A DNA stretch of 64,000 nucleotides, taken from positions 43,586,001 through 43,650,000 of the forward strand of contig OX597837.1 in NCBI GenBank assembly GCA_951406725.2, read 5' to 3'. Under the pieces are notes generated by a model. That model did no database searches. It saw nothing but the letters and a program-made list of their open reading frames with translations, and was not told where the DNA came from. The position numbers and the translations under genes were made by a program. Each line of letters opens with the position of its first letter. Position 1 is the first letter of the stretch. This DNA comes from Octopus vulgaris (taxonomy: Eukaryota). Of the stretch, positions 2,872 through 63,718 are shown piece after piece.

Positions 2872-3122
2872 CCTCCGTCAGTTACAACGACGACTGCTCC
2901 AGCAGATTCGATCAATCGAAGAGGATGCTCGAGAAATTAATGTGAAAGTGAATAAGTATTTCACAGACACGCGTACCTTTAACGTAATTCTCTGGAAGAG
3001 TCCGCATCGTGACAAAATATACAAGGCCAGCCCTTTGAATTACGGGTAGAACTCACTTTTGCCAGCTGAATGGACAGGAGAAACGTGAAATAAAGTGTCT
3101 TGCTCAAGGACACAACGCGCCA
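2872..3122 (-). mobile_element. Degenerate SINE, family D (Nin-like tail)
   Basis: Similar to 16445-16626, 32365-32469 and 42951-43259 (caaggccagccctttgaa; cacagacacgcgtacc; gaaattaatgtg). Confidence 0.65.
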
Positions 3123-3249
3123 CTAAGTTCCTGGACTAGTTCTTTGGCGCGCTAACAGATGGCAGCACAAAGTTGCGTGCGCAGTGAGTGTTAGCAGTGT
3201 GCTTCAAGAGACAGATGAACATATATATATGTATATATGTGTATATATG

Positions 3250-3283
<34 letters not shown>

Positions 3284-3289
3284 TGTATG

Positions 3290-3332
<43 letters not shown>

Positions 3333-3403
3333 TATATATCTACCTTCTCTATAATGTTGCCACTTGATATGAAAATTTTTATATTAATGGAAAACCTCTA
3401 TAA

Positions 3404-3489
3404 TTGGCTGATGAGTACTCGGCAATTTAAATCTGTTGTAATACTTACAACATTTAATAAAATGATGTAGTACGAAACGATTGTACCAA
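3404..3489 (+). ncRNA. Type I hammerhead ribozyme motif
   Basis: Stem I TTGG/CCAA; core CTGATGA (3408-3414); stem II GTACT...AGTAC with an inner TGTTGTAA/TTACAACA hairpin; GAAAC (3474-3478)-GATT-GTA cleavage triplet (3483-3485). Confidence 0.85.
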
Positions 3490-3629
3490 ATAACCGGAGT
3501 CATTCTTGTTGCTTATTTTGATTATAATCACCCCGCAGATTTCTATGGATAACACCATACAGAATTCTGGTGCATCTAAATTAAGTACCTATATTCATTT
3601 GAATCTAAATTTTTGCTGAACTTATATAT

Positions 3630-3669
<40 letters not shown>

Positions 3670-3672
<3 letters not shown>

Positions 3673-3795
3673 GACCTTTCAGTTTTCGCCTACCAAATTC
3701 ACCCACAAGGCGTTGGTGGGCACGAGGTTATAGTAGAAGACAACCATGTGGTTGGGAAGCAAGCTCCTTAACACATAGCCACGCCTTCGCCTGTG
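3670..3795 (-). mobile_element. SINE family B, 5' fragment
   Basis: ttcagttttcgcctaccaaattcacccacaagg...accatgtggttgggaagcaagc matches the full copies at 32.6 and 40.0 kb. Confidence 0.75.
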
Positions 3796-4019
3796 ACTAA
3801 TTATGAACAAACCGCCCTGTATCATACATCGAAATGTAGATAACTGAATCTATCTTAAAGAAATAAACAGGCTATATTTGTTAGACTACTACACACAACA
3901 CAGTCTTCCTCTCTTGAAAAAAGAATTCGAGCACCATGTGTGCCTTATATTCTGTCTAAAGTCAGCGCAGCATAAGATTCGCTTCAGCCTGACTGACGAT
4001 AAACTTGGTGTCGTTGCGT

Positions 4020-30598: not shown

Positions 30599-30827
30599 TA
30601 TATATATATATATATATATATATGCGTGTGTGTGTAAGATCTTGGAATCGAGGTGTAGGAAAAAAGTCAGTTTCAAGTAATGCGTAGTAAATATTAAAAA
30701 AAACTTTCAGGGACAATAGCGATTTATTGAATAGAAGGTTGTGCATTTTATTCCTATCGAAGAACGATAAGCTGAAAAAGAAATTTTCTTTCTACAGTAG
30801 GAAATTTAATCTAATTAAGATGTCCTT

Positions 30828-30909
30828 GGCCTGAAGAGTAGCCGGCGGTATACACCGCACTTGGATTTTGCCATTCTGAGGTTCTGCCCGCTATGAAACA
30901 TAGGTAGCC
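30828..30909 (+). ncRNA. Type I hammerhead ribozyme motif
   Basis: Stem I GGC/GCC; CTGAAGA (30831-30837); stem II GTAGC...GCTAT with an inner GCGGT/ACCGC hairpin; GAAAC (30895-30899)-ATAG-GTA (30904-30906). Confidence 0.78.
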
Positions 30910-31059
30910 CGGATCTTTCCTAATCCATTCCGTAACCCATGTTTGTATATATGCATACATACAAACATACATACATACACACGCACACACATATAATATA
31001 TATATATATGTATATATTCTTTTATTCTTTCATATATATATATATATCAAAGAGTGTTC

Positions 31060-61985: not shown

Positions 61986-62600
61986 TAAATTAGAGACAAA
62001 ACCACTATTAGGCAAATCAAACAATGAAAGACTTAAGCCAATACATATGATTAATTTATATTATTTAAATATGTAACAATTATTAAAAAATATAATTAAT
62101 ATCCACTACGATCGTTTCCTGTCTGCTGTCATCAATTTTTTGAGTCGCAGTCATTCATCAGGTGGTTTCAAAATCTAAAATATAATCAATATTTTTAAGA
62201 TATAAATAATATATATAATCTAAAATAATAATTTACTTATAATAAACTCTATTATTAAATATGATTATATCGAAATCGACTATAATGTTAAATATTAACT
62301 TTAATTTATAAGGTAGAAAACCCATATTCTAATATCAATATTAGTCTATATCTAATTACATAAATATTTAAAATGACTAATATATATAAATTATCAATGA
62401 AAATATATATAAATATTATAATCAAGATCTAAAATAATCTCTATAAACAATTGTATATAATAAAAACCTAATATATTTAATTTTTCATAAACTAACTTAA
62501 ACTGACTTTCGAAATCTTATGTAAAATACTTATAGAAATATTCAATTCTTAGTAATATAGTATTAAATAAATACTATAAGTACTATAAACATAATTATGA
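61985..62600 (-). mobile_element. AT-rich Penelope-like terminal unit between (TA)n tracts
   Basis: Contains an HHR. Its terminus aattagagacaaaaccactatta...caaacaatga is homologous to 4960-5015. Confidence 0.55.
62103..62165 (-). ncRNA. Type I hammerhead ribozyme motif with palindromic stem III
   Basis: Minus strand CCAC-CTGATGA-ATGACTGC...GCAGACAG-GAAAC-GATC-GTA-GTGG. Confidence 0.8.
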
Positions 62601-63061: not shown

Positions 63062-63718
63062 GCCGGCATTTCAATTCGAAAATTTTCCAGAAAATTGATC
63101 AATAATTAATAATAATATCAAAGGGTAATCAGAAATATTTGAAATTTCCATTACCAATGGCCTAGCGTGTAAACAGTTTAGTCAATAGACTATATGTTAT
63201 TCATATAAATACAGTGTACATTTAAACACATAAGAGGTATCAGTCATTGGATTCCTTGCACGCTAGAGAGAACAGTTAAATTCCAAACCACTATTAAAGA
63301 TAAAATTTCAGATATTTCTGATTATCCTTTGATATTATTAATTATTGATAAGTTTTCTGGAAAATTTTCGAATTGAAAAGCCGGCATTTTATTTATTGCC
63401 AACAAGGAGCTGCGCTTGCGCGGTGAATTTGAAAAATTACAATGTATAAGCACGAGGCATATACTGGATTGCCTAGTGTATATATATTTAATCTAAGGTG
63501 TACCTGCTGAAGAAAACTTCGCATAGCGAATTATTTTATTCGATAAAAAATATCTGAAACCATTGGTCCAGGAGTTAGATGGTAAATGATTTTATTTTTC
63601 AATCCTTTCGAAATTTTATCCCCAATAGTGGTTTGGAATTTAACTGTCCTCTCTAGCGTGCAAGGAATCATATGATGGATACCTCTTATGTGTTTAAATG
63701 TACATTGTATTTATATGA

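Follow-up and report, generated by a model that had tools for sequence, protein, structure and literature searches.

Penelope-like elements (PLEs) of the Hydra clade, in the parts of Craig et al. (2021, PMC8557442) drawn on here, are shorter than 3 kb, insert into (TA)n, carry a hammerhead ribozyme motif and encode a protein with a C-terminal GIY-YIG domain without CCHH, a CxCX5C linker and the motifs DKT and RWK. The same parts of that source give the signature of PLE insertion as a pseudo-LTR (pLTR) repeated as a partial tandem, a tail at one end and an inverted, 5'-truncated copy. For the 27 distinct Hydra-clade families (29 rows, two families appearing twice) its file S2 lists stem II at 3-7 bp and loop 2 at 3-10 nt, 10-24 nt in total; Hydra-1_Obim, from Octopus bimaculoides, has a stem II of 7 bp and a loop of 8 nt.

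Two further bodies of work bear on such elements. A short palindromic helix III is the mark of metazoan and PLE hammerheads that act as dimers, and PLE motifs cut poorly as monomers, according to the sections of Cervera and de la Pena (2014, PMC4209133) used here. For a PLE of Anolis, bench experiments showed that the element protein cleaves and extends both DNA strands and that reverse transcription starts at two internal sites whose spacing equals the tail (Frangieh et al. 2024, PMC11167929).

Here we describe a short hammerhead-bearing unit in a 64,000-nt stretch of the Octopus vulgaris genome (contig OX597837.1, positions 43,586,001 to 43,650,000), which we call the window. Judged from its sequence and that of its relatives, we put a probability of roughly 85% on the reading that a Hydra-clade PLE, present in many copies, left the unit in (TA)n as a dead insertion truncated at its 5' end, and that its type-I hammerhead, which is the element's own, would probably need a second copy as partner, or the help of a protein, to cleave itself.

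A discrete unit between two TA microsatellites

An earlier note on this DNA had placed a stand-alone unit at 3330..3622, bounded on both sides by (TA)n. TRF confirms the flanks, and comparison with relatives shifts the limits by 2 nt, to a non-repetitive, discrete unit of 293 nt at 3332-3624 between two TA-type microsatellites:

3221-3339, (ATGT/AT)n array found by TRF
3221..3331, no strand, upstream (ATGT)n/(TA)n microsatellite representing target DNA (TRF and sequence)
3332..3624, + strand, 5'-truncated insertion of a family A Hydra-clade Penelope-like element, consisting of the end of the 3' UTR and the tail (from relatives: shared 3' end, graded 5' ends)
3623-3669, (TA)24 array found by TRF
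3625..3669, no strand, downstream (TA)n microsatellite representing target DNA (TRF)

The setting is typical of the family. TA-type repeats follow the 3' end of the element in 29 of 30 loci fetched from this genome, with only a short run in L015, and (TA)-type repeats also lie 5' of truncated copies, so that family A shares the Hydra-clade habit of inserting into (TA)n. Farther out, the sequences at 3100-3220 and 3670-3800, as well as the flanks of L065 and L019, resemble parts of an abundant SINE-like repeat that borders (TA)n elsewhere, and the TA target may belong to that repeat. The window copy has neither promoter nor ORF, and no function of its own is expected of it.

One 3' end and a graded series of 5' ends

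A search of the 2.8-Gb genome with the unit returned 2836 first-look candidates; 40 were scored, with identities of 95-96%, and almost all of these 40 cover the query from end to end. The window unit is 94.9-96.0% identical to the other 29 loci fetched. Such a search had been proposed in the earlier note, which would have given up its reading had the unit proved single-copy and without homologues; what it returned is a high-copy family with a shared 3' end.

That 3' end reads GAAC-TTA(TA)n in 23 of the 30 loci and lies within about 25 nt of this position in the remaining seven. The 5' ends grade continuously upstream across 1.6 kb or more, and walking beyond this distance showed graded 5' ends continuing up into an ORF. 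Copies that we had taken to represent a SINE-like unit of about 400 nt, later about 495 nt, kept extending upstream as longer ones were found, and that description was dropped. The window copy, having served as the query, is by construction among the shortest. One fixed 3' end combined with graded 5' ends points to target-primed reverse transcription that stops early, and the unit, as read from this series, is the product of 5' truncation during insertion; nothing in the 30 loci pointed to loss of an internal part.

The coding parent is assigned to the Hydra clade

The last 244 residues of the upstream ORF gave 135,321 first-look candidates in the genome. We compared two readings of the protein, P0001 (579 aa) and P0006 (an intact 981-aa ORF of a sister family). 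Both contain, read by eye, RRIRWK, PADKTGN, LYRDDA, NFLDxTLDL, a CxCX5C linker, VIY...YLG and a CxxC near the C-terminus. In P0006 the linker reads CKCRIKSKC and is accompanied by PADKTGN and RRIRWKT, and in P0001 it reads CDCRIRSKC. The C-terminus follows the pattern VIYKCT..YYYLGCT..R..H with no CxxC between GIY and YIG, again by eye and without a Pfam match. These motifs line up with the Hydra alignment printed in the supplement of Craig et al. 2021, as far as that supplement is used here.

Neither Pfam, PDB sequences nor NCBI-named matches yielded a reverse transcriptase or GIY-YIG call for the element protein. The search for protein homologues gave four matches, the best an Octopus sinensis protein named as a kinase; that name is probably due to the long Asn-rich low-complexity insert that P0001 and P0006 (loci L057 and L065) carry between the reverse transcriptase and endonuclease regions. 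In the ESM-Atlas the element protein lies next to eukaryotic clusters, some with members carrying RVT_1, which we treat as a lead. The clade assignment thus combines motifs read by eye with the ESM-Atlas lead. ORFs still further upstream in L045 include no reverse transcriptase, and one belongs to an unrelated LINE endonuclease.

In their single ORF, putative C-terminal GIY-YIG (by eye), CxCX5C linker, DKT and RWK motifs, (TA)n insertion and a hammerhead close to the 3' end whose helix III is short and palindromic, the octopus elements resemble the Hydra-clade PLEs in the sections of Craig et al. 2021 (PMC8557442) drawn on here. They differ in size: the spacing of successive hammerheads, which equals the unit length, is 3465 nt in L068 and 4678 nt in L065 (3.5-4.7 kb) rather than less than 3 kb, because of the Asn-rich insert and a longer 3' UTR.

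This parentage bears on whether the unit is a retrozyme monomer, as the earlier note had offered as one of two possibilities. A non-autonomous retrozyme would be transcribed, cut itself with its hammerhead, form a circle and be copied back by the enzyme of a PLE, and a 293-bp length and type-I hammerhead do fit the animal retrozymes in the parts of Cervera and de la Pena (2020, PMC7229834) and of the Li, Clavereau and Pollet (2026) preprint drawn on here; these non-LTR retrozymes are likewise short hammerhead-bearing repeats related to PLE pLTRs. They are, however, independent non-coding tandem repeats (PMC7229834, same parts), whereas the octopus unit is the stub of a coding element: its sequence is contiguous with the coding PLE as the 3' end of that element, its 5' ends are graded continuously up into the ORF, and none of the 30 loci contains a head-to-tail array. 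Contigs assembled from four of 24 public runs, whose RNA label is a guess, also contain no joints, though contigs cannot exclude circles. We regard a retrozyme origin as very unlikely.

Two 3' ends 98 nt apart

Full copies with the arrangement pLTR-ORF-pLTR, in L065 (family B) and L068 (family A), carry the hammerhead in both pLTRs and reveal the anatomy of the fragment. The equivalent of 3527-3624 follows directly after ...TTGATTATA in both copies and runs on into the ATG, which identifies 3527-3624 as the first ~98 nt of the 5' UTR. The fragment therefore comprises the last ~195 nt of the element 3' UTR followed by a 98-nt tail that is the start of the 5' UTR:

3501..3527, + strand, conserved block CATTCTTGTTGCTT..TTATAA, kept in families A-C, with 3526/3527 as the proximal 3' end
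3527..3624, + strand, 98-nt tail, first part of the 5' UTR, continuing into the ATG in L068 and L065
3618..3624, + strand, GAACTTA, the distal 3' junction at the second TTATAA site (shared ends of 30 loci)

The family thus has two alternative 3' ends, at 3526 and 3624, both at TTATAA. Copies that pass from the equivalent of 3526 straight into (TA)n are found in L066, at the downstream end of L065 and among loose ends of contigs; at the distal site, full copies read on past the junction as GAACTTATAATTCC. The proximal end is likely one start site of reverse transcription and the distal junction likely a second, and the TTATAA at both can pair with a TA target.

Small hairpins surround these sites. 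In the tail, TATGG (3544-3548) pairs with CCATA (3555-3559) and ATTC (3593-3596) with GAAT (3601-3604), and by eye on the alignment both covary between families. The tail and 5' UTRs of L065, L067 and L068 were also seen by eye to contain small hairpins and a long-range helix with compensatory change between families (TATGG/CCATA against TACTG/CAGTA; AAGTACC..GGTACTT against AAGGACC..GGTCCTT). Since the hairpins flank both 3'-end sites, they may mark where copying starts.

A head-to-head inverted partial copy lies on the 5' side in 11 of the 30 loci, and all 11 end at query positions q186-191, the proximal site. With the partial-tandem pLTR and the one-sided tail, these inverted 5'-truncated copies complete the PLE insertion signature. 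The window copy has no inverted partner. Taken together with the two-site, two-strand bench result of Frangieh et al. 2024, this signature suggests that the window unit is one arm, begun at the distal site and aborted after 293 nt.

The inverted arms, together with TA flanks on both sides, give some loci the look of inverted-repeat elements, and what remains of a DNA transposon (a MITE that duplicated TA, or a Helitron that entered at AT) might be suspected from them. The arms are unequal in length and end at a fixed internal site, terminal inverted repeats are absent, and the unit is 5'-truncated from a parent coding for a reverse transcriptase; we attach practically no probability to this origin, and the truncation series refutes it in its MITE and Helitron forms.

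The other possibility offered in the earlier note, a solo pLTR, comes close: the unit covers the pLTR segment, with the hammerhead-bearing end of the 3' UTR and ~98 nt of 5' UTR, the same segment that forms the pLTR junction of full copies. As an account of origin it is disfavoured by the graded 5' ends, which come from 5' truncation. Recombination between the two pLTRs of a full copy has, in our judgement, only a slight chance of having produced the unit, as the 5' end varies from copy to copy in the manner expected of abortive reverse transcription, the pLTRs of full copies themselves start at variable points, and stubs occur at every length although the parent pLTR measures only 25-290 nt.

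Under the favoured reading of a truncated PLE insertion, the element's GIY-YIG endonuclease would nick the TA repeat, and reverse transcription would take one of two internal sites on the RNA as its start, as happens in vitro with the Anolis PLE. It would usually stop early, leaving stubs such as the window unit, and extension from both DNA strands would account for the head-to-head arms at other loci. The hammerhead, for its part, would trim longer-than-unit transcripts when two motifs pair via their palindromic helix III.

This scheme owes much to Poseidon PAc of Anolis carolinensis (PMC11167929), with which the octopus family shares two 3' ends that define the tail, AT-rich targets, extension of both strands (the inverted arms) and a hammerhead adjoining the start sites of reverse transcription, one that in PAc is dispensable for insertion. 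The two nevertheless belong to different clades, the tail is 98 nt here and 30-40 nt there, the octopus junctions lie at TTATAA that is pairable with the TA target whereas PAc starts without target homology, and the octopus element is known from sequence alone.

A type-I hammerhead with a 59-nt helix II

The hammerhead occupies 3404..3489, upstream of the conserved block:

3404..3489, + strand, type-I hammerhead motif from the 5' strand to the 3' strand of stem I (sequence, descriptor, covariation across four families)
3404-3407 with 3486-3489, + strand, stem I TTGG/CCAA
3408..3414, + strand, core CUGAUGA (C3-A9), invariant except N7 in a 10-sequence alignment
3415..3473, + strand, helix II domain of 59 nt (RNAalifold and pair counts)
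3415-3419 with 3469-3473, + strand, outer stem II GTACT/AGTAC, 5 bp enclosing 49 nt
3423-3426 with 3464-3467, + strand, inner pairs of helix II CAAT/GATG, with one mismatch in the window copy
3434-3441 with 3445-3452, + strand, apical hairpin of 8 bp, TGTTGTAA, loop TAC, TTACAACA
3456..3461, + strand, AAUAAA hexamer in the 3' strand of helix II, 24 nt before the predicted cut
3474..3485, + strand, GAAA, stem III AC-GATT-GT and cleavage-site A (sequence)

All the parts claimed in the earlier note (an intact core, a 5-bp stem II enclosing about 49 nt with its own 8-bp hairpin, and the AC-GATT-GT stem III) can be read directly. GAAA spans 3474-3477, stem III pairs A3477-C3478 with G3483-T3484 around the loop GATT, and H17 is A3485, which places the predicted cut between 3485 and 3486 (GUA|C at 3483-3486). 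The motif therefore has the CUGANGA...GAAA core and the UH site of a type-I hammerhead. A strict descriptor, requiring the core, stem III, a UH site and no fewer than 4 bp in each of stems I and II, matched only this motif in the 64-kb window; in 200 windows simulated with a first-order Markov model of the window the mean was 0.01 matches, and two of the 200 had any match.

Rfam hammerhead models gave no match at the gathering score over the whole window, at E up to 10 over 3200-3700 or at E up to 1 over four longer loci, and the long, 59-nt helix II is likely the cause. The Rfam matches in the flanks are microsatellite look-alikes of miRNA models.

Relatives have a perfectly palindromic helix III, ACGATCGT; in the window copy a CpG has undergone a C-to-T change, and two such copies would pair with G-U wobbles. 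By analogy with other PLE hammerheads, the palindrome makes it likely that the family motif works as a dimer. For the family-A monomer the fold of lowest predicted energy is an alternative one rather than a hammerhead (z-score of the window copy -1.08), which is consistent with dimer action; families B and C fold into stems I and II, family C with z = -3.63. Like the PLE hammerheads in the sections of Cervera and de la Pena 2014 (PMC4209133) used here, the octopus motif is of type I, lies in the pLTR and has a short stem I, a weak palindromic helix III and compensatory changes; their helix II, in contrast, has 6-8 bp and a small loop, and the one here is long, interrupted and capped by an apical hairpin.

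The hexamer lies in this long arm. AAUAAA or AUUAAA occurs at the same place in families A-D (L065, L067, L068, L087 and others) and in seven of eight more divergent copies. The hexamer could serve as a poly(A) signal, or it could simply form the A-rich strand of a U/A helix.

Conservation and covariation

The same architecture was found in 15 of 20 regions downstream of related reverse transcriptase genes, and also in L065-L068. Across families A-D the helix II domain measures 57-60 nt and consists of an outer stem, an internal loop, a U-rich/A-rich helix and the apical hairpin, all of which covary. We examined covariation in 10 sequences from four families (A, B, C and D) of this genome. Run without constraint, RNAalifold finds stem I together with the long helix II and its apical hairpin; it also predicts pairing between the core and the stem III region, a non-hammerhead feature that we set aside. 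When the hammerhead structure is imposed, 94.8% of cells can pair, compared with 30-51% when the partners are slid.

Both sides have changed in nine of 25 pairs (stem I, 2 of 4; helix II, 5 of 12; apical hairpin, 2 of 7), counts that derive from four families and hence from few independent events; both stem III pairs are invariant. Stem I illustrates the compensation, with UUGG/CCAA replaced by UUAG/CUAA or UCGG/CCGA. None of 500 shuffles reached the observed percentage paired or the covariation score. The number of double-change pairs was matched by 63 of the 500, and further pair types numbered 18 against 21.0 in shuffles, below the shuffled mean. The alignment therefore has three helices, stem I open and stems II and III closed, with covariation.

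The core is invariant across families except at N7, where U, C or G occurs. N7 is a free position in hammerheads. On these grounds the motif is a conserved member of the PLE type-I group, with catalysis predicted from its sequence.

No mark of cleavage at the insertion ends

If cleavage shaped the inserted DNA, ends might be expected at the cut. The upstream pLTRs of 16 longer copies have scattered starts, none of them at the predicted cut. When family-A 5' junctions with (TA)n were sought by pattern no more than 14 nt from the cut, 32 matches came up, representing 13 distinct loci. A single one of the 13 begins exactly at +1; for six or seven the start is ATTACC and for three T[CT]GTACC, both of them places with TA microhomology. 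Cleavage does not appear to leave a mark in inserted DNA. This lack of an end pile-up agrees with findings on the Anolis PLE: insertion in vitro did not require cleavage, and none of the RNA-seq reads stopped at the cut (Frangieh et al. 2024, PMC11167929).

The contigs from the four public runs include no molecule ends at the cut. Their depth rises toward the 3' end, a rise that copy number alone would give, and they are uninformative about expression and cleavage. In three of the runs the contigs begin to match at L058:7036 (about window 3505) and have other sequence before it, which suggests another repeat family sharing the last part of the 3' UTR and the tail.

A hammerhead-like motif kept for some other purpose, such as protein binding or a signal for reverse transcription, and not cleaving at all, would be in keeping with the missing pile-up, the dispensability of cleavage and the silent RNA-seq record in Anolis, and the preference of the family-A monomer for another fold. 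What weighs against such a motif is that its core is kept, its stems compensate and its N7 is free, the pattern of a working ribozyme core, and that the Anolis PLE hammerhead was cut once protein was added (Frangieh et al. 2024, PMC11167929). We consider a non-cleaving motif unlikely, though it keeps a real share of the probability, and favour a hammerhead that cleaves when paired or assisted.

Other long-armed motifs in the window

The earlier note had reported that the enlarged stem II recurs at 30.8, 62.1 and 63.5 kb and might be a lineage-specific architecture. Core motifs are indeed present at all three places, but a clean stem II only at 30.8 kb:

30636-30948, + strand, second short PLE-type stub between microsatellites, with a hammerhead-like core at 30831-30837 / 30895-30898 and 57 nt between
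62161-62105, - strand, hammerhead-like motif (core halves within 62161-62114), 36 nt between core halves and an imperfect stem II
63507-63565, + strand, hammerhead-like motif (core halves within 63507-63559), 42 nt between core halves and an imperfect stem II

The motif at 30831-30898 (+) has a 57-nt helix II with inner pairing. It belongs to a separate family with at least 1432 first-look candidates at 84-88% identity, and its relatives have alternative 3' ends at two sites, include adjacent inverted pairs and carry a palindromic helix III, ACATATGT. A covariance model, R1, picked out nothing in the window apart from its own source and, weakly, 30817-30922 (14.5 bits, E 0.55); the 62.1- and 63.5-kb motifs went unmatched.

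As side observations, the 62161-62105 (-) motif has the stem III ACGATCGT and ends in (TA)n near 61990, and the 63507-63565 (+) motif lies between inverted arms of ~90 nt at 63215-63300 and 63620-63710.

Within this genome, then, the enlarged stem II holds up as a shared architecture: since families A-D and the 30.8-kb family all carry the long helix II, it is common to several PLE families of this genome.

Discussion

Element class, TA targeting, tail, hammerhead and inverted arms are all already in print, and the unit itself, a stub left by a retrotransposon of known class, is ordinary. What distinguishes the hammerhead of this family is its long, structured helix II, 57-60 nt compared with 10-24 nt in the Hydra-clade PLEs of Craig et al. 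2021 (PMC8557442), where it is absent from all 27 distinct families of file S2, the part of that source used for this count. Nor did we find a description of a long structured helix II in animal PLEs in the literature as drawn on here, in part for each source, which included Craig et al. 2021, Cervera and de la Pena 2014/2020, Perreault et al. 2011, Frangieh et al. 2024 and Li et al. 2026, the families of Li et al. standing outside the comparison. A metagenome scan for the long-armed motif gave no matches.

The nearest likeness is in PLE-X1_sMoe and PLE-X1_sTam of spike mosses, which have a long loop 2 (35 and 29 nt) and are marked as deviating from canonical in file S2 of Craig et al. 2021 (PMC8557442). 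These are, however, endonuclease-lacking plant elements in rDNA with another helix III, and the parts of that source used here report no inner hairpin for them.

The long arm could have a role in RNA fate. As the AAUAAA or AUUAAA hexamer lies 24 nt before the cut and both starts of reverse transcription lie just after it, helix II might act as a switch arm in which folding of the paired hammerhead, or polyadenylation there, decides whether an RNA becomes a message for translation or retains the sites beyond the cut as a template for copying. Drawn as it is from the placement of sequence motifs, this idea is quite unlikely to be right; if true, it would amount to ribozyme-based sorting of retrotransposon RNA into two fates.

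For the family as a whole, three points follow. Its helix II, structured and covarying, exceeds that of the published Hydra-clade set about fivefold in length and is present in several octopus-type PLE families; as Rfam models miss such long-armed hammerheads, ribozyme censuses of such genomes undercount them. The two fixed 3' ends 98 nt apart, with inverted arms always at the proximal one, are the genomic counterpart of the two starts seen in vitro for a vertebrate PLE. Finally, the lack of ends at the predicted cut adds evidence from the genome against a part for hammerhead cleavage in shaping inserted DNA, and bears on what purpose the hammerheads of PLEs serve.
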